From assembly GCA_947478685.1 (NCBI GenBank), contig CANJWO010000004.1, positions 1-61,178 of the forward strand: DNA of 61,178 nucleotides. Reading direction: 5' to 3'. Made by a program: the position numbers and the translations under genes. The notes beneath the pieces were generated by a model, which saw only the letters and a list, made by a program, of their open reading frames with translations, was not told the origin of the DNA and made no database searches. The stretch is from Chlamydiota bacterium (GTDB taxonomy: Bacteria > Chlamydiota > Chlamydiia > Chlamydiales > 2-12-FULL-49-11). Positions 1 to 52,292 of the stretch are shown here, piece after piece (position 1 is the first letter of the stretch; every line of letters starts with the position of its first letter).

Positions 1-44
1 GCTTGTAGCCTTTGTTGTTCCACTTTAAAATTCTCCCAAGCCAT
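1..44 (-). CDS. IS481-family transposase, N-terminal fragment (runs off the window)
   Basis: The minus strand reads ATG GCT TGG GAG... = MAWENFKVEQQRLQ, which fits the MPW...v.eqR..f start of IS481-type transposases. A GAGG RBS lies just upstream. Confidence 0.6.
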   Translation of the reverse strand, partial: MAWENFKVEQQRLQ

Positions 45-93
45 AAAAACCTCATAAATTATTTAATATAAGGTTATTATAACATATTTTTGT

Positions 94-149
94 AAAGTGT
101 TACCTATGTTGGTGAATCAAAGTGTTACCCATGTTGGTGAACTGGACCA
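94..149 (-). mobile_element. Left end of IS481-like element with two subterminal direct repeats
   Basis: AAAGTGTTACC(T/C)ATGTTGGTGAA occurs at 94-116 and 119-141 (25-bp period, 1 mismatch), upstream of the transposase start. This is a typical AAGTGTTACCCATGT end motif. The exact terminus is uncertain. Confidence 0.6.
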
Positions 150-234
150 CCACAGAGATCACAGAGAACACAGAGAAAAAATAGAAAGTTTTTTTGCGCG
201 CAGCGCCTCTGTGTTCTCTGTGCTCTCTGTGGTG
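148..234. repeat. CACAGAG-triplet palindromic element (REP-like), copy 1
   Basis: CACCACAGAGATCACAGAGAACACAGAG - spacer - CTCTGTGTTCTCTGTGCTCTCTGTGGTG. Homologous to 28228-28311 and 52766-52851. Confidence 0.9.
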
Positions 235-408
235 AAAATTTTTTCTTTATATTCTGATAATAAACATGTTGCATGAGAATGCTTAGGATAGCTTTCTAAA
301 AAATCCTAAAGTTCTAGTCCGTGATCTCTGTGGTGTATATATTTTTCTAAGTAGAAATCTGGTGGTTTTTGCTAGTGTTGCAATTCGGGGTGCTGATATG
401 AGTTAGGT

Positions 409-2064
409 ATGAAGATATTGGTGGCGCAGCTTAATCCGGTTATTGGCGATCTTGAAGGCAATATGGAGAAAGTCCTTGTTGCCATGGAGGTAGCTAGGAC
501 GCAAGAAATTGATATTGTGGCGTTTCCAGAAATGACGCTTTGTGGGTATGCTCCTGAGGATCTTGTTCTTCATAAAAATTTCATTGAGGAGATGGAGTTA
601 TGTCTCGATAAAATTGTGCGTGAGTCAAAAGGGATAGCAGCGCTCGTTGGACTTGTACGGAAAAATCCGATTCATGAAGAGAAGGGGTTGCTCAATAGTG
701 CTGCGGTTATTTCGGATGGGAAGCTTCTAGGATTTCATGACAAGTGGCTCTTGCCTACCTACGATGTTTTTGATGAACGGCGGTATTTCTCGCGAGGGAA
801 GAATGTTAACATCTTTGAGATAAAGGGGATGCGCATAGCGGTCCTCATATGTGAGGATATGTGGCAAAATGCGGGCGAGGAGATTTCTGGCACGTCGTAT
901 CCGTGGGATCCTGTGAAGGAGCTTGTTATTTATAAGCCCGATATTCTGTTTAATTTGACAGCTTCCCCCTTCCAGTCAAGGAAGGCTGACATTCGTGTAG
1001 AGGTGTGCAGGGCTGCAGCAAAGACACTTAAGTGTCCGATTGTCTATACTTGTCAGGTTGGGGCAAATGGTCCTGTAATTTTTGATGGATACAGTCTCTT
1101 TGTCGATAAAGAGGGTCATCTTAAGCAAGTAGCAAAGGGATTTCAGGAAGATTATATGATAATTGACTTGAATGCCAGGGGAAATGTCTTGTCGTTTGAG
1201 CACGATCCGATGTATGACATGTTTGCAGCTCTTAAGTTGGGCCTGCATGACTATTTTAAAAAGTCGGGGCAAAAAAAAGCGATCATCGGTTTATCAGGTG
1301 GGATTGATTCGGCTCTTGTGGCAGCTATTGCAAAAGAGGCTTTGGGTTCTGAAAATGTTTTAGGTATTTACATGCCAACTAGGTATTCGTCGCATGAAGG
1401 TTTTGAGGATGCCAAAAAACTAGCAGAAAATTTAAATATAGAATTCAAAACAATTGACATAGACCAGCTTTTCCAAAACTTTCTCGACATTCTCCATCCC
1501 TATTTTAAAGAGGAGGAAGAGGATGTGACTGAAGAGAATATTCAAGCTCGAATTCGCGGTTTGATTTTAATGGGTTTTGCAAATAAGTTTCGAGCGCTTG
1601 TCTTATGTACAGGAAATAAAAGTGAGCTTGCTCTTGGCTATTGCACTCTTTATGGCGATATGTGCGGCGCGCTAAGTGTTATTGGGGATGTTCTTAAGAT
1701 GGAGTGCTATCAATTGGCCAGATGGATTAATCGGGAAACTGAGATCATCCCTCTTCGTACTTTAGAAAAGGCCCCATCGGCAGAGCTTAGACACCATCAA
1801 AAAGATTCTGATTCGCTTCCCCCTTATGAGATTATTGATAAAGTGATTCGTGGCTATATCGAAGAGTACAATACAATTGAAGATATTGCAAAAAACTATC
1901 AAATTGATGAAGAGACGGTTAGGTCAATTGTTCGTCGTATCTATAAAGCGGAACATAAGCGCAGACAAGCAGCTCCGAGTCTCCGTATCTCGAAAAAATC
2001 ATTCGCAGTTGGCCGCAGAAAGCCTCTCCATTTTTCAGGCACCTTATCTGAAAAAGTCTATTGA
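409..2064 (+). CDS. nadE: Glutamine-dependent NAD+ synthetase
   Basis: N-terminal nitrilase domain (FPEM, K..LPTYDVFDERRYF, ICED) and C-terminal SGGIDS, NIQARIRG, TGNKSE, TLYGD, PSAEL. Confidence 0.96.
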   Translation: MKILVAQLNPVIGDLEGNMEKVLVAMEVARTQEIDIVAFPEMTLCGYAPEDLVLHKNFIEEMELCLDKIVRESKGIAALVGLVRKNPIHEEKGLLNSAAVISDGKLLGFHDKWLLPTYDVFDERRYFSRGKNVNIFEIKGMRIAVLICEDMWQNAGEEISGTSYPWDPVKELVIYKPDILFNLTASPFQSRKADIRVEVCRAAAKTLKCPIVYTCQVGANGPVIFDGYSLFVDKEGHLKQVAKGFQEDYMIIDLNARGNVLSFEHDPMYDMFAALKLGLHDYFKKSGQKKAIIGLSGGIDSALVAAIAKEALGSENVLGIYMPTRYSSHEGFEDAKKLAENLNIEFKTIDIDQLFQNFLDILHPYFKEEEEDVTEENIQARIRGLILMGFANKFRALVLCTGNKSELALGYCTLYGDMCGALSVIGDVLKMECYQLARWINRETEIIPLRTLEKAPSAELRHHQKDSDSLPPYEIIDKVIRGYIEEYNTIEDIAKNYQIDEETVRSIVRRIYKAEHKRRQAAPSLRISKKSFAVGRRKPLHFSGTLSEKVY

Positions 2065-2116
2065 TTTAATCTTTCTCTTTCCATAGTCTTAACCCTCAAA
2101 TTTTAGGGGTATTATA

Positions 2117-2647
2117 ATGACAGCTATTACGAATGTGGTGTTTCCTGTACTGACAATGGATGGTAAGGCTTATCTTCTTTTAGATACGATTCCGGAAACT
2201 CTCAAAAAACCTGTGACTCTTGATTTCATTGCATCTGTTCAGGACCTTGGGGTTTTGAGAAAGAGGTGCGAAGCTACTTCTCAGATAACTCACGAGGGTG
2301 AAGTGGCTATTCATACCTATATTCTCCGTCCCAAAACTAGTTTTCATATAGGCGATTTAATTTCTAGGTTTTCTACAGAAGAGATCTCCTATTCAATATG
2401 TGTATCATCTTCTAGGTTTGAGGCAAGAGGTCAAGCGCTTGAAATTATTAAAAATTTTGGGGAGAGCTTTTTATCCACTAGTCAGAAGGAAGAGATTCTT
2501 ACTCGAGCATTATCTGTTCTTCATGCTGACTTCATAGGGGACAATTCTAAAATAGATAAGACGAAAGTCAAAATAGTGATGTTAGTCGGTATTGTAATAT
2601 TTAGTTTTGCTGCAATTTCTTTGATTATGAATAAAATGTCTAGGTGA
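2117..2647 (+). CDS. Hypothetical protein with C-terminal transmembrane helix
   Basis: 176-aa ORF with a GGGG RBS and a single C-terminal hydrophobic helix (IVMLVGIVIFSFAAISLIM). Confidence 0.65.
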   Translation: MTAITNVVFPVLTMDGKAYLLLDTIPETLKKPVTLDFIASVQDLGVLRKRCEATSQITHEGEVAIHTYILRPKTSFHIGDLISRFSTEEISYSICVSSSRFEARGQALEIIKNFGESFLSTSQKEEILTRALSVLHADFIGDNSKIDKTKVKIVMLVGIVIFSFAAISLIMNKMSR

Positions 2648-3521
2648 GGTTGTCGGGGAAAAGGAGGACTTCAGCTAGGGTCTCCTTTTTAAGGGCTAGC
2701 ATGAGAAGTCTGTCAAAGCCGACGGCAATGCCATAAGTGTTAGGAGGGAGCCCTTTTTCTAGGGCAGCAAGGAAAAAACTGTCGATAGTAAGATCGGGTT
2801 TCTCTTCGAGGGCCCTTTTTCGATTGGCCTCGATGAAACGATTTTTTTGTTCAACAGGATCTGTCAGTTCACAAAATCCATTTCCGAGTTCGATCCCTTG
2901 ATAATAGTATTCGTAGCGTTTGGCGATCTCTTTTCCGTTTATGATCGCAGTTGTTGCAAGAGCTGCGTCTTCTGCAGGAAAATTTGTGATGACTGTGATT
3001 TTATCGATTCCTAAGTTTGGTTCAACTGAAGTTGCCCAAATGTAGTGTCTTTTTATCTCTTCTCGCCAAGAGCTAGTGTTGATGTTTGAAGGCTTTGCAT
3101 AGCGATAATAAGCCTCTTCATAGGTGAGGGTTTCAACGGGTAACTTGCCCAAAAAAATAGAGAGAAAATCGAGCACCTCTTGCAAAAAGATGCTCTCTTC
3201 TGTATCTGTTTTATACCATTCGCACATGGTGAATTCAGGATTATGTCTTGATCCAGACTCCTCTTTGCGAAAGGTGTGGCCAAGGAAATAGATGTCTCCA
3301 GAGCCATTAGCAAGGAGGCGCTTCATTGCATATTCAGGGGATGTGTGGAGAAACCTTCCATCTTTTGTTTCAAAGGGATCGATGTAGGTGTCAATGGCTG
3401 CAAAGCGGGATAAAATGGGAGGATCTACTTCAAGAGATCCTCTTTCATCAAAAAAAACACGAACTTTTTTAAAAAAATTCGCCCTAAATCCTACTAACGT
3501 ATTCGCTCGTTCTCGTGTCAA
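2640..3521 (-). CDS. epmA: EF-P lysine aminoacylase EpmA (GenX/PoxA)
   Basis: LHTSPEYAMKRLLA, FRKEE..SRHNPEFTMCEWY, GIELGNGFCEL, GIAVGFDRLLML. Directly downstream of efp. Start codon uncertain. Confidence 0.92.
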   Translation of the reverse strand: MTRERANTLVGFRANFFKKVRVFFDERGSLEVDPPILSRFAAIDTYIDPFETKDGRFLHTSPEYAMKRLLANGSGDIYFLGHTFRKEESGSRHNPEFTMCEWYKTDTEESIFLQEVLDFLSIFLGKLPVETLTYEEAYYRYAKPSNINTSSWREEIKRHYIWATSVEPNLGIDKITVITNFPAEDAALATTAIINGKEIAKRYEYYYQGIELGNGFCELTDPVEQKNRFIEANRKRALEEKPDLTIDSFFLAALEKGLPPNTYGIAVGFDRLLMLALKKETLAEVLLFPDNLT

Positions 3522-24592: not shown

Positions 24593-24595
24593 CTA

Positions 24596-24786
24596 TATAG
24601 TCATTTGACTTCAAATTAAGACTATAGCAAATTTAATTCGCTATATGGCTTCAAGAGCATCTTCACCTTCTTACATGCCTGTATCGGCCCTGTAAAAACA
24701 GAGACCTGCTTCGGCACCGCGCTTGCTTGTAAAAATCTGAAGCGCTCTTTTTGCCAATAGTCTGAATTTAAAATCAAATGACTATA
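24596..24786. mobile_element. MITE with 30-bp TATAGTCATTTGA... terminal inverted repeats
   Basis: TATAGTCATTTGACTTCAAATTAAGACTAT pairs with ATAGTCTGAATTTAAAATCAAATGACTATA (3 mismatches). Contains the other TIR type (AAATTTAATTCGCTATA) internally. Confidence 0.85.
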
Positions 24787-24829
24787 CCATTGCAAAAAAT
24801 TGTGGAAACAAGAGATTCTTGGTGGCAAC

Positions 24830-30939: not shown

Positions 30940-30982
30940 TAACTCACCTATCTGCCTTTATGGTGGAGAGATAGGTGAGTTA
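30940..30982. terminator. 14-bp perfect hairpin between convergent ptsN and clpC
   Basis: TAACTCACCTATCT pairs with AGATAGGTGAGTTA. Confidence 0.55.
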
Positions 30983-30996
30983 TAGTCATTTGACTT
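30981..30996. repeat. Solo MITE TIR (TATAGTCATTTGACTT)
   Basis: Identical to the first 16 bp of the 24596 element; overlaps the clpC stop codon. Confidence 0.65.
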
Positions 30997-33562
30997 AGGT
31001 TGAAGGGTCTTTTTTTCGTTTGCGAGGGGTTGTAGCTGGGACAAGCGCTGTCTCTTCCTCTTCCTTATCTTTTTTATCAGGATCCTGGGTTTCAAAGACA
31101 AGGGCGTTTTCTTTAACATTGACATTGAAGATGGCGTTGAGATTTGGATTGCGAAGGAGCATTTCGGCAAGTGGGTCTTCTAGGAGCTGCTCAACGGCTC
31201 GTCTTAGGGGGCGAGCGCCCATCTCAGGCTGATACCCTTTGTCAACGAGGAGATTTTTTGCCTCGAGGGAGAGGAGAAGTTTGATGTTTTTGCGATCAAG
31301 ACGCTTTTGAAGCTTGCTTACTTCTAGGTCGATTACTTTAACAAGGTGTTCTTTATCAAAGGCACGGAAGATCACTATGTCATCAAGTCTATTTATAAAC
31401 TCTGGCTTAAAGTGTTTCTTTACCGCTTTTTCGATCTTGTCTTTCATTGTGTCGTAATCAATTTTGTCGTTATTGACTCCGAATCCGACTTCTGTTGATC
31501 TCCGAATTAGATCTGAACCTAAATTGGAGGTCATCACAACAATAGTGTTACGAAAGTCAACTTTACGTCCAAGAGAATCGGTGAGTCTTCCTTCCTCTAA
31601 TATTTGGAGAAGGATATTCATCACATCTGGATGTGCTTTTTCGACTTCGTCAAATAGAATGACAGAATAAGGACGTTGTCTTACTTGTTCAGTAAGCTGA
31701 CCGCCCTCTTCGTGACCTACATATCCCGGTGGAGAGCCGGTCATGCGAGATACTGCAAATTTCTCCATATACTCAGACATATCAACTTGAATAAGGGCAT
31801 CTTCCCCGCCAAAGAGTTGAATTGCTAAATTTCTGGCTAAAAGCGTTTTACCAACTCCTGTAGGGCCTAAAAAGAGGAAGGCTCCAATCGGACGGTTTGG
31901 GTCTTTGATATCAGCACGAGACCGTTTAAGTGCTCTTGAAACAACGCCAATTGCATCATCTTGACCAATAATATCCGCTTTTAGAGTCTCTTCCATTTTC
32001 AAAATTTTAGAAGTTTCTGCCTCAGTCAACCGAGTGACAGGTATCCCTGTCTGTTTTGCAATGATTGCAGCAATATCTTCCCAGTCGACAATAACTTTTT
32101 GCTCTTCCTTATTCTTTTCCCACTCTTCTGAAAGTTTCTCTAACTTTTCACGAAGTTGCTTTTCTTGGTCTCTCAGTTTTGCAGCTTTTTCATATTCTTG
32201 ATTTGCAATTGATCCCTCTTTTGCTAATCGTATCTCTTCAATTTCTGTTGTAAGTAGAGCAAGATCTTGTGGTTGGTGCATAACCATGATTCTAGCTTTT
32301 GCGCCAGCTTCATCGAGCACATCGATAGCTTTATCAGGGAGGAATCTTCCCGCAATGTATCTATCAGATAAAATGACAGCCTCTTTAACAGCCTCATCTG
32401 TATAGATACATTTATGGTGCTCTTCATATTTAGTTTTCAGGCCGCCCAGAATTTCAATAGTCTCTTCATTAGATGGGGGAGCGACAATAATCTTTTGGAA
32501 ACGTCTTTCAAGAGCGGCATCTTTTTCAATGTGTTTTCGATACTCATCAAGAGTGGTGGCGCCAATACATTGGATTTCACCGCGAGAGAGAGCGGGTTTT
32601 AATATGTTTGAAGCGTCAATAGCACCTTCTGCAGCGCCAGCTCCTACAATTGTATGCATCTCGTCGATAAAAAGGAGGATGTTTCCAAGTTTTTTCACTT
32701 CATCCATTACTGCTTTGATTCGCTCTTCAAATTGACCACGGTATTTAGTGCCGGCAATCATTAAAGTAAGGTCGAGAGAGATCAGTTTCTTTTTAGCTAA
32801 ATTCTCAGGAACTTCACCTTTAACAATAGCGTGAGCAAGACCTTCGACAATAGCTGTTTTTCCAACACCGGCCTCGCCAATAAGGACAGGGTTGTTTTTT
32901 CTCCGTCTACATAAGATAAGGATGAGGCGTTCAACCTCTTTTTTACGACCAATAACAGGGTCTAGGCCGCCTTCTCTGCAAAGTTCAGTAAGGTCATGAC
33001 CATATGCTTTTAAGGCATGCATTTTTTCAGTGCCGGCTACCCCGCCTGAGCTACTTGCTGTACGATCTTGATTTTGTTTTTGGTTCTGACTGTTTCCCAA
33101 AGTGACAGGGGGAACTTGTAAATTAAATGTTTCAAGCTCCTTTAAAATTTCCTTACGTACTTCTTTTAAGTTTACATTTAGGTTTTCTAAAATTTGAGCA
33201 GCGACTCCATCTTGCAGTCTGATAAGGGCTAAAAGTAAATGTTCAGTGCCAACATAGTTGTGGTTTAGGGCTAAAGCCTCTTCATTTGCATATTCAAAAA
33301 CTTTCTTCACCTTGCTCGTAAGCGCTGGATCTCCATATACTTGTATTTCAGGTCCATAGCCTACTGTCAGCTCGACTTCAGCGACGACAGTGTCGTATTC
33401 TATGTTCATGTTCTTTAAGACGTTAACCGCAATTCCTTGCCCTAACTTCATGAGGCCAAGCAGGATATGCTCTGTCCCTAAGTAATTATGATTAAGGCGC
33501 TGAGCCTCTCTTTTTGCTAACTTGATTACCTGTTTTGCTCTATTGGTAAACTTATCAAACAT
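30995..33562 (-). CDS. clpC: ATP-dependent Clp protease ATP-binding subunit ClpC
   Basis: Clp N repeats, [11 protein letters not shown] middle domain, [15 protein letters not shown]. Confidence 0.97.
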
Positions 33563-48974: not shown

Positions 48975-49078
48975 TTATGAACAATGTTTCCACAACATCT
49001 TCTAAAGGTGTAATTTACGATCAAAATTTAACACCTCCCAAATAACAATACAAGGAGATTTCTGAATATATTGGATAA
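48975..49078. promoter_or_regulatory. Possible degenerate DnaA boxes upstream of dnaA
   Basis: TTATGAACA (48975), GTTTCCACA (48986) and TTATCCAAT on the minus strand (49070-49078). Confidence 0.4.
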
Positions 49079-49109
49079 CCTGTTTAGCATCAGCCGAAAA
49101 AAAAGATAC

Positions 49110-49505
49110 TTACTGATAAGCTAAGATGAGGGCTTCGGCTTGGCCTGAAATCTTTAAATCTGGATGGCTTTTTAGAACAGCGGCCTGTTCAAGTCCTTGT
49201 CTATGATAGCCTAATAGAAAAAGTGCTTTTGCGCGATTGATTAGGGTAGGGGGACTATTAGGATCATACTGTAAGGCTCTATCAAAAAAGTTAAGGGCCA
49301 TTAGATTATCACCCAGCTCTAGATGAAGGGCGCCTAAGGTTTGAAGATCGTAACTTGATTCAGGACAAAGAACTACGAGGGCATCAAAGAATTTCATCGC
49401 GATCTTATAATGACCTTGTTTGATGTAAGAATAGGCGACAAAACGAAGATCGTTCACCTCCTCTTCTGACCAACCTAAAAGATCCATCCAATGAATTTCA
49501 CTCAT
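49110..49505 (-). CDS. TPR protein, putative type III secretion chaperone (CT274-like)
   Basis: LRFVAYSYIKQG, YDLQTLGALHL and TPR motifs; syntenic next to dnaA. Confidence 0.8.
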   Translation of the reverse strand: MSEIHWMDLLGWSEEEVNDLRFVAYSYIKQGHYKIAMKFFDALVVLCPESSYDLQTLGALHLELGDNLMALNFFDRALQYDPNSPPTLINRAKALFLLGYHRQGLEQAAVLKSHPDLKISGQAEALILAYQ

Positions 49506-49516
49506 GCATATCCTTT

Positions 49517-50035
49517 TTATCCTTTGCAGTAGCGATAACGCTCTGAGGTGATTTGTGCCATGATTTTATTCAAAACCTGAATACTTTGCATCATATCAAT
49601 TAGTGCATTGGCTTCTTTATCAATCAGTTTTACCTCTTCTTCACTTTCCCAAGAGGGCTGATGCTGCTTTTTTCTCTCATCATCACGCTTATCTTTCTCA
49701 CTCTTCCGTTTTTCCTGAATTCTACCCATTTGAAGTTCTAATAGTTCAGCGGGGCCAAGTTTAGGGGCAAGCTGGTGAGTGAAAAGCCGCCCTTTTTGAT
49801 CGTTATACTTCTCGGGCGGCGGCATATTGCTCCAAGTCTTCCCCTTGGTCCCTAACTCAAACAAGATTTGATAGTCTGTAACTATCATAGGTTCAAATAT
49901 ATCAGTAGATAATTGAGAGGCAATCGATCTGCCGTTAGAGATCATTTCCTCATCAAAATACTTTCTATTCTGCTCATAATGAATGTAGGATTGAATTCCT
50001 ATATCATCGATGGTTTTGGTCGATTTTGTGCTCAT
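49517..50035 (-). CDS. Conserved chlamydial protein (CT273-like)
   Basis: TIDDIG, W..MPPP..Y, LFT.QL.P.LG and C-terminal KG; syntenic position. Confidence 0.75.
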   Translation of the reverse strand: MSTKSTKTIDDIGIQSYIHYEQNRKYFDEEMISNGRSIASQLSTDIFEPMIVTDYQILFELGTKGKTWSNMPPPEKYNDQKGRLFTHQLAPKLGPAELLELQMGRIQEKRKSEKDKRDDERKKQHQPSWESEEEVKLIDKEANALIDMMQSIQVLNKIMAQITSERYRYCKG

Positions 50036-50075
50036 ACCCCCGTCATAGCAAATGAGCTATTTTGTGACTAGCAGT

Positions 50076-50100
50076 TATAGTCATTTGACTTAAAATTTGA
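50076..50100. repeat. Solo MITE TIR
   Basis: TATAGTCATTTGACTTAAAATTTGA. Confidence 0.7.
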
Positions 50101-50154
50101 ATTGATAGAGAGGCCTTGATATCCTTACTAGTGTAACTGTCAGGTGAATATAGT

Positions 50155-50448
50155 TTATAGTCTCCAAATGAGGTTTAGGGTATCTACCTTCCTCATAACT
50201 TCCTTTGAAATTTCTTCAGTATCATAGCATATCCTTCCTGCCATTATGATATTAGGATGTTTTCCTTGGGCCTCTCTTGTAGCTATCTCATCTGGAGTAT
50301 ATAGTGCTTTTTTTGCTAGTTCTGTAAGATCGCCCATATTTTTGCATATGGATGGGTCTATTTCCACCTTCTCATACTTACCTTCTATAGATTTAAATAA
50401 TACTTTAAATGCCTCTGATGAACCGGATGAACCTACTGGGTCTGACAT
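50155..50448 (-). CDS. Eukaryotic ubiquitin-like protein lacking diglycine; candidate effector
   Basis: FKVLFKSIEGKYEKVEIDPS aligns with ubiquitin 1-20. NIIMAGRICYDTEEISKEVMRKVDTLNLIWRL aligns without gaps to ubiquitin 42-73. GAGG RBS. Confidence 0.75.
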   Translation of the reverse strand: MSDPVGSSGSSEAFKVLFKSIEGKYEKVEIDPSICKNMGDLTELAKKALYTPDEIATREAQGKHPNIIMAGRICYDTEEISKEVMRKVDTLNLIWRL

Positions 50449-50688
50449 AAATATACCTCTTAATTAATGGTATTTCTAAATAAATATATTATTTAAATTT
50501 ATGCAAGGCATATCTTGTGTTGGATAAAAAGTAATTTAACATGCTTTAAATAAGCATATTAAATTAATAATTTTAGGGTCAAGCTTTGAGTGTTTGAGTT
50601 TCAATCTCACTCAAACCTGATCCTATTTTCTTAAGCTATATTCTGGTTTTTTAGCTTTTTGGGGGTGGATTAAAAATTATTTTAACAA

Positions 50689-50850
50689 TTCCCACTGGTT
50701 CCCACTTTTTTATTTTTGCAAATAGGGCTTTGATAGTCTTTTGCTTGTGTGCAATTAATTTTTTTAAAGGTTGAGGGTAAGTGGGGGTTTTATCCAAAAT
50801 CGCTTGCGAAGTTTGTGATCAATTGTTAGTATGTGGGAAATTGTGGGAAA
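50689..50850. promoter_or_regulatory. MraZ-box-like GTGGGAA direct repeats
   Basis: TGTGGGAAA twice at a 10-bp period (50832, 50842), TTCCCACT twice at a 10-bp period (50689, 50699), and GTGGG near 50781. Confidence 0.65.
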
Positions 50851-50851
50851 T

Positions 50852-51385
50852 ATGGCGAAGTCCTTTTTTAGTGGCTCTTATAGTGCGAAGCTTGATGAGA
50901 AGAACAGATTTGTTCTTCCTCAAGAACTCCGCTATCAGCTCGTAGAGGACGGAAAGCTAGAATTTACAATTGCTTTGAGTATGGGTGGATGTCTTGCGAT
51001 TTATAAAAAAAGTGACATCACAGAGATCGTAGAAAGATTTAAAAAGAAGCAACACATTGCAAAATTTCAGAAATTTTTCACCCTTTTCTTTTCGACATTG
51101 GTTGAAGCAACTTGTGACAAAGTTGGAAGAATTATGATCCCTTCTGTTTTGAAAAATGGAGTGGGAATGAAACAAGAAGTTATTATTGCAGGGGCTCTTA
51201 ACAAAATAGAGCTTTGGCCGAAAGAAGTTTATGATAGAGATCTTGCTAAATTTATCGGTGGCGAGGCTGAAGGGGATTTACAAATGATGATGGAAGAGGC
51301 GTTTTCTTTACTCTCAGATGAGGAAGAATCAAACGGAATCGAAAATGCAGTTGAAAGAGTGCAAAATGAGGTCGTAAAACTATGA
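50852..51385 (+). CDS. mraZ: Division/cell wall cluster repressor MraZ
   Basis: LDEKNRFVLP, DKVGRIMIP, IELW. Start moved to ATG 50852. Confidence 0.92.
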   Translation: MAKSFFSGSYSAKLDEKNRFVLPQELRYQLVEDGKLEFTIALSMGGCLAIYKKSDITEIVERFKKKQHIAKFQKFFTLFFSTLVEATCDKVGRIMIPSVLKNGVGMKQEVIIAGALNKIELWPKEVYDRDLAKFIGGEAEGDLQMMMEEAFSLLSDEEESNGIENAVERVQNEVVKL

Positions 51386-52292
51386 CATTACAGAAAGCAC
51401 CCCATATCCCAGTAATGATGGATGAAATGCTTGAATACTTTGCAGATGTTTCTATTAAGGTCTTCTTTGATGGGACATTAGGTGCAGGTGGTCATGCAAA
51501 AGCAATGTTAGAGGCTCACCCCGAAATAGAGATGTATATTGGTTGCGACCAAGATCCAATGGCCTTAGCAATTGCAAAAGAGAATTTAAGTGCTTTTGAG
51601 CACAAGATAAAGTTTATACATGGAAACTTTCTTAATCTAGACCAGATGATCGCATCGGTTGGTGTTAAGCAGGTAGACGGTTTTTTTTTGATTTAGGAGT
51701 GTCATCTATGCAATTTGATGAAGATTTTAGAGGCTTTAGTTTTCAGAAAGAAGGTCCTCTCGATATGCGCATGGATCCTACGACGGATCTTACAGCTAAG
51801 GATGTTGTGAATGAAATGTCCGAAGATGATTTAGGGGTTATTTTCAGAGATCTCGGAGAAGAGAGATTTTGGAGAAGAGGCGCTAGGGCAATTGTAGATG
51901 CACGCAAAAAGAAGACAATTGTTACAACAACAGAGCTTGCAGGGGTAATTGAGAAGGCGATTTCTAGAAAAGAGGGAATCCATCCTGCAACAAGAATATT
52001 TCAAGCTATCCGAATCTATATTAATAAGGAGCTTGAATCGATTGAGGGATCCTTAAAAAAAGCGATAGATGTCTTAGCCCCAGGTGGAAAAATTGGCGTT
52101 CTCAGTTTTCATAGCCTAGAAGATAGAATTGTAAAAAACATTTTTCGTGATGCAGCAAAGTCTATAAAAGGACTTGATCAAAAGCCGTTACTTGCCCTTT
52201 TAACAAAAAAACCTAGAGTCCCAACTCCACAAGAGAAGAGGATTAATCGTAGATCTAGAAGTGCTAAGTTGCGTTTTGCTGAAAAACTATGA
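51382..52292 (+). CDS. rsmH: 16S rRNA m4C1402 methyltransferase RsmH, split by a frameshift at T9 (51681-51689)
   Basis: Part 1 has HIPVM and DGTLGAGGH. Part 2, in the -1 frame, has DLGVSSMQ, RGFSF, PLDMRM, SFHSLEDRIVK and RSRSAKLR. Confidence 0.93.

Follow-up and report, generated by a model that had tools for sequence, protein, structure and literature searches.

The window analysed here, the whole 61,178-nt stretch of DNA from a chlamydia whose assembly comprises 1.62 Mb in 58 contigs and is 91% complete, holds a 97-aa ORF that is a real gene, restricted to its species and encoding a member of a two-member orphan family. That the gene exists, that it is rare, where it lies, and that its product lacks a C-terminal Gly-Gly (GG) are established. 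We give an even chance to the reading that the product is a strongly diverged ubiquitin-like (beta-grasp) protein without GG, belonging to an orphan family and encoded in a variable slot beside a candidate chaperone pair. An earlier sequence-only reading of this DNA had presented the ORF as a bacterial mimic of ubiquitin. That observation is accurate, yet statistically weak.

The gene and its only homologue

The position and the protein sequence given for the ORF in the sequence-only reading matched the ORF list exactly, with 97 aa and an ATG start. The features of the gene and its surroundings are collected in Table 1. The GC content of the ORF is 0.371 and its GC3 is 0.286, with a genome GC of 0.396 and a GC3 of 0.315-0.416 in the neighbouring genes. 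A promoter scan near the ORF was uninformative: shuffles predicted 6.2 promoter-like sites and 4 were seen. Rfam, run over 49000-51000, returned only sub-threshold snoRNA noise.

Table 1. Features of the 97-aa ORF and its surroundings, in positions of the window
Feature	Positions	Strand	Basis and remarks
dnaA	47598-48938	-	
TPR protein, 131 aa, LcrH/SycD-like candidate type III secretion chaperone, CT274-like	49110-49505	-	TPR families; TIGR02552 E 2.9e-11, below curated cut-off
DUF5399 (CT273-like) gene, 172 aa, downstream of the ORF and co-oriented	49517-50035	-	PF17377 E 8.4e-13
Dispersed repeat copy, 16-23 nt	50074-50096	+	Within the 119 nt that separate the ORF from the DUF5399 gene
97-aa ORF	50155-50448 (stop included)	-	ATG start; ORF list; orphan-family member, 1 of 2 known; candidate divergent ubiquitin-like beta-grasp protein
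Residues 66-97, C-terminal block	50158-50253	-	HMMER; 11/32 identities to ubiquitin 42-73; ends WRL, no GG
Residues 64-74, HPNIIMAGRIC, E2-active-site-like motif	50227-50259	-	Shares residues with the LIFAGK look-alike of ubiquitin
Residues 34-63, two predicted helices	50260-50349	-	Alignment A1 and AlphaFold2; contains C35-A56 and the residues extra vs ubiquitin
Residues 14-30, predicted beta-hairpin	50359-50409	-	DSSP on AlphaFold2 models; aligns with ubiquitin beta1-beta2 (HMMER, chain 6n5m_A)
Residues 1-13, Ser/Gly-rich N-terminal extension MSDPVGSSGSSEA	50410-50448	-	Sequence; modelled disordered
Shine-Dalgarno-like AAGAGG	50456-50461	-	7 nt upstream of the ATG of the 97-aa ORF; read from sequence

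DNA at >=99% identity to the ORF region was found in contigs of freshwater and lake metagenome runs. Three DNA runs, from three studies and none flagged as a possible source, were compared in detail, and runs with a small share of matching words (X11-X19 apart from X18) were left out of the contig comparison. The ORF was intact in run X7, with 0 differences over 49100-50606. In run X10 the ORF differs at 50410 alone, by a change that is synonymous as read by eye. The contigs of run X8 leave 50350-50576 uncovered and have no bearing on absence of the ORF. Additionally, a 158-nt contig of the freshwater metatranscriptome library X18 is identical to 49850-50007 (0 differences), the 5' part of the DUF5399 gene, and ends short of the ORF. 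This contig is a weak hint of transcription of the DUF5399 gene, with DNA carry-over possible.

An exhaustive HMMER search of 1.84 billion representative sequences gave six matches at E <= 0.001, one of which, P0005, is a true homologue. Another was the ORF itself. The remaining four (P0002, P0003, P0004 and P0006) were long repetitive proteins in which many weak stretches add up, and they were dropped as spurious. P0005 has 113 aa and matched at E 3.4e-4, with 40% identity over the matched stretch by phmmer and 37% over alignment A1. The two proteins agree best in C35-A56, which covers the first helix and the insert (CK..GDL.EL.K..LYTP.EIA), and additionally at KYEK, GK and WR. P0005 runs eight residues beyond WR, ending in ...WRPQPLSKIG, and so also lacks GG. 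No eukaryotic or other ubiquitin-family protein was significant among the 1.84 billion representatives. With no significant similarity to a eukaryotic protein, no origin can be inferred for the gene.

Searches closer to the source genome confirmed the rarity of the ORF. Neither the 4 same-genus genomes nor 56 further relatives searched yielded a homologue, and the two-member profile found no further member in 400 same-order genomes. One match of A1 to genome G151 reached E 0.003 for one genome among 401 and contained 2 internal stops; it was dropped as chance. All 20 other TPR-bearing genomes of the family lacked the ORF at the syntenic position. In a word-index search the ORF found only itself, and the two-member alignment found only its two members. 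Scans of genome and metagenome contig collections with A1 gave 63 and 592 pattern matches, respectively, and tblastn confirmed 0 of them. A further scan of the genome contigs, with the DUF5399 protein, likewise gave no confirmed match.

Resemblance to ubiquitin and predicted fold

The residue-level description in the sequence-only reading was reproduced by HMMER. Alignment to ubiquitin chains gave the same C-terminal block, with 11 identities in the 32 columns N66-L97 by hand count, and chain 6n5m_A gave the same N-terminal block, in which K, GK, E and PS are identical. The blocks are separated by two gaps of 6 and 5 residues in the 6n5m_A alignment, in agreement with the roughly 11 extra residues proposed. 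In ubiquitin numbering, the equivalents of L8, I44 and V70 are I21, I68 and I94, those of K6, K11 and K63 are K19, K24 and K87, and K48 is replaced by R72. The protein terminates in ...LIWRL-stop, at the equivalent of L73 and without GG, and its N-terminus (MSDPVGSSGSSEA) is Ser/Gly-rich as claimed. Because these equivalences and the L73-equivalent end follow from the HMMER alignment, the earlier description is correct. Conjugation in the manner of ubiquitin is impossible for a protein with no C-terminal Gly-Gly.

The resemblance to ubiquitin stood in part. The listed residue matches are present, but the similarity is below significance by Pfam, PDB and hhalign comparison. The patch equivalents I21, I68 and I94 are hydrophobic, and P0005 has V, F and L at these positions; these equivalences come from an alignment below significance, and strand positions carry hydrophobic residues anyway. 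The K6 equivalent is Y in P0005 and the K48 equivalent is D.

Profile comparisons went against assignment to the ubiquitin family. HMMER found 0 Pfam families for the ORF at E <= 10 and 0 matches to PF00240 genome-wide at E <= 10, and NCBIfam gave no family for the ORF. In the PDB search, single ubiquitin chains matched at E 0.36-0.45 and poly-ubiquitin chains at a whole-sequence E of 0.018-0.13, the latter being low because the weak scores of repeated copies sum. Per-domain scores were all 2.5-5.9 bits, with i-Evalues of at least 150. The ten PDB matches at E <= 0.5 comprised 8 ubiquitin or poly-ubiquitin chains, 1 engineered ubiquitin variant and 1 UFC1. Every ubiquitin match was lost when the two-member profile was used against the PDB. 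P0005 by itself had no ubiquitin among its PDB matches, and its ubiquitin scores were equalled by 647-1195 of 3000 real windows, meaning that it has no ubiquitin likeness.

As a closer reference set, 19 PF00240 domains from same-order genomes were used (20 loci fetched, L028 dropped). The profile-profile comparison by hhalign, with the two-member profile against these domains, gave a probability of 0.7% and a P of 0.081, which counts against the ubiquitin-like reading. An HMM of the 19 domains scored the ORF at 4.2 bits (E 3.9), rank 27 of 2332 sequences. Pairwise local alignments were unremarkable for 17 of the 19 domains, with at least 15 of 500 shuffles equalling the observed score. The alignments to L027 and L033, which have longer loops, were near whole-domain and in the right register, and shuffles equalled their scores in 4 of 5000 and 9 of 5000 cases, respectively. 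Against a fairer background, 3000 real windows of 97 aa cut from long ORFs of this genome, 43 windows equalled the ORF by best score, 13 by top-two sum and 18 by total. These ranks put the ORF among the most ubiquitin-like 0.4-1.4% of protein segments, which is suggestive. In a scan of about sixty ORFs, such likeness arises by chance with a probability of tens of percent.

Structure prediction gave a mixed picture. AlphaFold2 reached a pLDDT of 42.5 without an alignment and 51.7 with a two-row alignment. By DSSP, the models contain strands at residues 14-21 and 24-30 and helices at 38-49 and 52-60. Residues 31-60 were the best part (pLDDT 66-76), and pLDDT stayed under 50 over residues 1-15 in one model and 1-21 in the other. 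The C-terminal third was unreliable, and a helix instead of strands was placed at residues 77-87. In these low-confidence models only the hairpin and the helices are recognisable, and the hairpin-helix order recalls the N-terminal half of ubiquitin. Foldseek on the second model gave 0 matches at E <= 0.001; its top match was an N-terminal ubiquitin fragment at E 1.4.

The ESM Atlas holds its own model of the exact sequence, with a pTM of 0.62 and a pLDDT of 0.70. Seven of the ten structural neighbours listed carry a ubiquitin-family Pfam domain in the aligned part, with a TM by query of 0.63-0.67 over 80-86 residues. An Atlas feature search stayed below 0.9 and is a lead only; it named clusters of Rad60-SLD, CIDE-N, Par3 N-terminal and GRHL1_C, all of which we take to be ubiquitin-like superfolds. 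The same search with P0005 gave no usable match and no model. The Atlas model is not independent of the sequence signals, because a language model can catch the same short motifs. A ubiquitin-like fold is plausible, given one language-model structure and weak sequence signals, and we judge that the protein probably adopts the beta-grasp.

Genomic neighbourhood and type III context

The ORF is co-oriented with the CT273-like and TPR chaperone-type genes, as had been stated, and the Pfam and TIGRFAM matches in Table 1 bear out the identity of both, the latter below its cut-off. The genes mraZ, rsmH, ftsL and ftsI lie on the plus strand, divergent from the ORF. The DUF5399 gene is kept at 67-76% identity in 3 of 4 same-genus genomes, and 20 of 21 other family genomes have the TPR gene. 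Genomes G001, G002 and G004 keep the dnaA-TPR-DUF5399 block, and the region beyond DUF5399 differs among them. The different orphans found beyond DUF5399 in each genome place the ORF in a variable slot and not as a fixed member of a chaperone module.

In sister species, the slot upstream of DUF5399 holds different orphans, at 2112-3352 (+) of locus L011 and at 2672-3058 (+) and 3-1073 (-) of locus L012. The slot genes encode 112 and 301 aa in G002, and others are present in G001. Pfam found nothing on the slot orphans of G001 and G002. A guess that the 301-aa protein of G002 is a cysteine protease had no support from Pfam and was discarded.

The genome encodes the type III export gate SctV (PF00771, E 1.1e-217). 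No terminator-like sites (0) were found between the ORF and the DUF5399 gene, so co-transcription of the two may be possible. A complex prediction for the ORF (A1) with its TPR neighbour (A2, 21 rows) scored 0.03 vs a mark of 0.32; it was run with no controls and speaks neither for nor against binding. In the part of PMC3576375 available, the C. trachomatis TPR protein CT274 is described as a candidate class II chaperone that self-interacts and bound 0 of 35 substrates tested. According to an excerpt of PMC3931295, CT273 was expressed too poorly for its secretion to be judged.

The spacer between the ORF and the DUF5399 gene carries a dispersed repeat with the core TATAGTCATTTRAMTT. The window holds 4 copies vs 0 expected, the other three being at 24594-24616, 24766-24788 and 30979-31001. 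The 16-nt core occurs in 23 copies genome-wide at <=2 mismatches. One inverted pair, 24596/24771, is about 170 bp apart. The sequence-only reading had placed a MITE end between the genes. A repeated motif is indeed present there, with one inverted pair elsewhere, and the MITE nature itself goes no further than plausible. Either a small MITE end or a regulatory site could explain the repeat.

Two ORFs in different frames, of 104 and 197 aa, make up the nearby rsmH (mraW) gene at 51382-52292 (+). The gene breaks at a nine-T run (51681-51689), and the stop of the first frame is at 51694-51696. Either an assembly error at the homopolymer or a genuine frameshift could account for this break.

Competing explanations and known systems

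If the ORF encodes a diverged ubiquitin-like protein, the fold would consist of a hairpin, a helix, an extra short helix of about 11 residues and two or three C-terminal strands. Lacking Gly-Gly, the protein would escape ubiquitin-style conjugation, and any action it has would be through non-covalent binding. Its gene occupies a slot between the DUF5399 and LcrH/SycD-like TPR pair and mraZ-rsmH-ftsL-ftsI that other orphans fill in each sister species. The main competitor, which we hold to be somewhat unlikely but serious, is an orphan of another fold whose resemblance to ubiquitin is a chance match of short motifs, as expected when about 60 kb are scanned. All sequence tests fall below significance once the search space is counted, and a top-1% rank among real windows means that about 1 in 100 genes would be equally ubiquitin-like. 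The homologue P0005 is without the resemblance, AlphaFold2 did not reproduce the C-terminal strands, and a UFC1 chain matches the same stretch equally well, showing that such matches arise easily. Against chance, the ubiquitin alignment runs collinearly through the entire domain and stops exactly where the domain stops, the Atlas neighbours are mostly ubiquitin-family, and the hairpin-then-helix order fits a beta-grasp. The UFC1 match itself (chain 9i9m vs residues 51-75, E 0.079, 13 of 25 identities by hand count) raises the alternative of a truncated E2-like (UBC/UFC1-like) protein, or a mimic of the E2 active-site loop, with a catalytic-type cysteine in residues 64-74. Here HPNIIMAGRIC fits HPN[LIV]x(3-4)Gx[LIVP]C, which we take to be the E2 active-site signature, as the sole match in 2332 ORFs (556,103 aa) and with 0 matches in 20 shuffles; 9i9m was also the only PDB match kept by the two-member profile, at E 0.85. 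The UBC fold requires E2 helices beyond the cysteine that are longer than the 23 residues left in the ORF. P0005 has VGT and a gap in place of HPN and the cysteine, the ORF has no Pfam match, and PF00179 had 0 matches at E <= 0.001 in 400 same-order genomes, the source genome included. The Atlas neighbours are ubiquitin-like and not UBC, and the motif was spotted post hoc. Together these points make the E2-like alternative the least probable of those weighed. Since the same stretch matches both ubiquitin and UFC1, which cannot both be by descent, caution is due about either.

The sequence-only reading had gone further, to a host-derived copy of ubiquitin secreted by type III secretion and, as a decoy that cannot be conjugated, engaging ubiquitin receptors, deubiquitinases or the proteasome through its I44 patch. 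This is improbable. Both family members have hydrophobic residues at the patch equivalents (I/I/I and V/F/L), GG is absent, the Ser-rich N-terminus is modelled as disordered, a candidate chaperone gene adjoins the ORF, and the secreted bacterial ubiquitin homologue BfUbb, described as lacking GG in the accessible part of PMC6194340, is a precedent. However, no significant similarity to any eukaryotic protein was found, hydrophobic strand positions are expected in any beta-grasp, and the equivalents of K6 and K48 are not kept in P0005, conservation peaking in the helix and insert, away from the patch. The ORF is also unlinked to the chaperone pair in all 20 other family genomes. Secretion is suggested solely by gene position and N-terminal composition, and delivery into a protist host with binding of ubiquitin-system proteins is speculative. 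A bolder version, in which a 97-residue non-conjugatable ubiquitin-fold protein is injected into a protist host and its E2-like HPN...Cys loop traps or jams the ubiquitin or UFM1 machinery, would make it a new effector type unrecognisable by sequence profiles; we regard this as more improbable still. Slightly below it we place a spurious, non-coding frame in the intergenic region from which the DUF5399 gene and mraZ diverge. In its favour, the ORF is short, none of the related genomes searched carries it, and its GC3 is lower than that of the neighbours. Against it stand the strong Shine-Dalgarno at the right distance, the pTM of the Atlas model, and P0005, found at 40% identity and E 3.4e-4 in 1.84e9 sequences. 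A diverged ubiquitin-like protein of an orphan family is thus the explanation we prefer.

Stand-alone ubiquitin look-alikes are known from bacteria. BfUbb of Bacteroides fragilis is described, in the excerpted text of PMC6194340, as a secreted ubiquitin homologue, 63% identical to human ubiquitin, with a signal sequence, a C-terminal cysteine and no GG. Its demonstrated role, in the passages available from PMC6194340, PMC5705921 and PMC11467351, is killing related Bacteroides. Without Gly-Gly, BfUbb acts without conjugation. The 97-aa ORF shares with it a stand-alone, bacterial, ubiquitin-sized form and the lack of Gly-Gly, but its identity to ubiquitin is not significant, no signal sequence is obvious on inspection by eye, and it carries an additional helical insert. 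In text searches, the available part of PMC13720258 gave no passage on bacterially encoded ubiquitin-like proteins, that of PMC12751079 had no occurrence of bacterially encoded ubiquitin mimics or BfUbb, and that of PMC4209131 had none of ubiquitin-family domains.

Other small proteins offer partial parallels. Eukaryotic ubiquitin aligns collinearly with the ORF over the whole domain, including hydrophobic patch equivalents and an end at the L73 equivalent, whereas the ORF has about 11 extra residues, a 13-residue N-terminal extension, no RGG tail and R at K48. E2 and UFC1 proteins share the HPN...G.IC at active-site spacing and one chain match, but the ORF has no profile match, is too short after the cysteine, and its motif is lost in P0005. 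ThiS and MoaD sulfur carriers are small stand-alone beta-grasp proteins that depend on a GG at the C-terminus and on a neighbouring E1-like adenylating enzyme. The ORF resembles them as a small stand-alone beta-grasp candidate, but it ends in WRL, has no such Pfam match and is neighboured by DUF5399, TPR and mraZ genes.

The closest comparison lies within the same order. PF00240 domains were found in 36 of 400 same-order genomes at E <= 0.001 and in 30 of 400 over the Pfam cut-off (25-89 bits). Loci L016-L035 carry clear PF00240 domains, with tandem arrays in G298, and some copies come about as near to ubiquitin as L016 does. Copies ending in RGD-stop or RGGC-stop, with no free GG, were seen in L019-L022, and proteins of this type are stronger candidates for ubiquitin mimicry than the ORF. 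Like the ORF, the chlamydial PF00240 proteins include small proteins with ends lacking a free GG; they match the Pfam profile, whereas the ORF gives nothing with PF00240 and reaches 4.2 bits with the HMM built from them. Given these copies and BfUbb, a bacterial non-conjugatable ubiquitin look-alike is not a new idea. What would be new here, if true, is a member too diverged for profiles and with an added helix. If both fold and delivery were true, the ORF would be a chlamydial ubiquitin-fold effector invisible to profiles, and such mimics would be under-counted among the orphans of intracellular bacteria. The better-supported and more useful result is the presence of clear PF00240 domains in 30 of 400 same-order genomes, several of them without a usable GG end.
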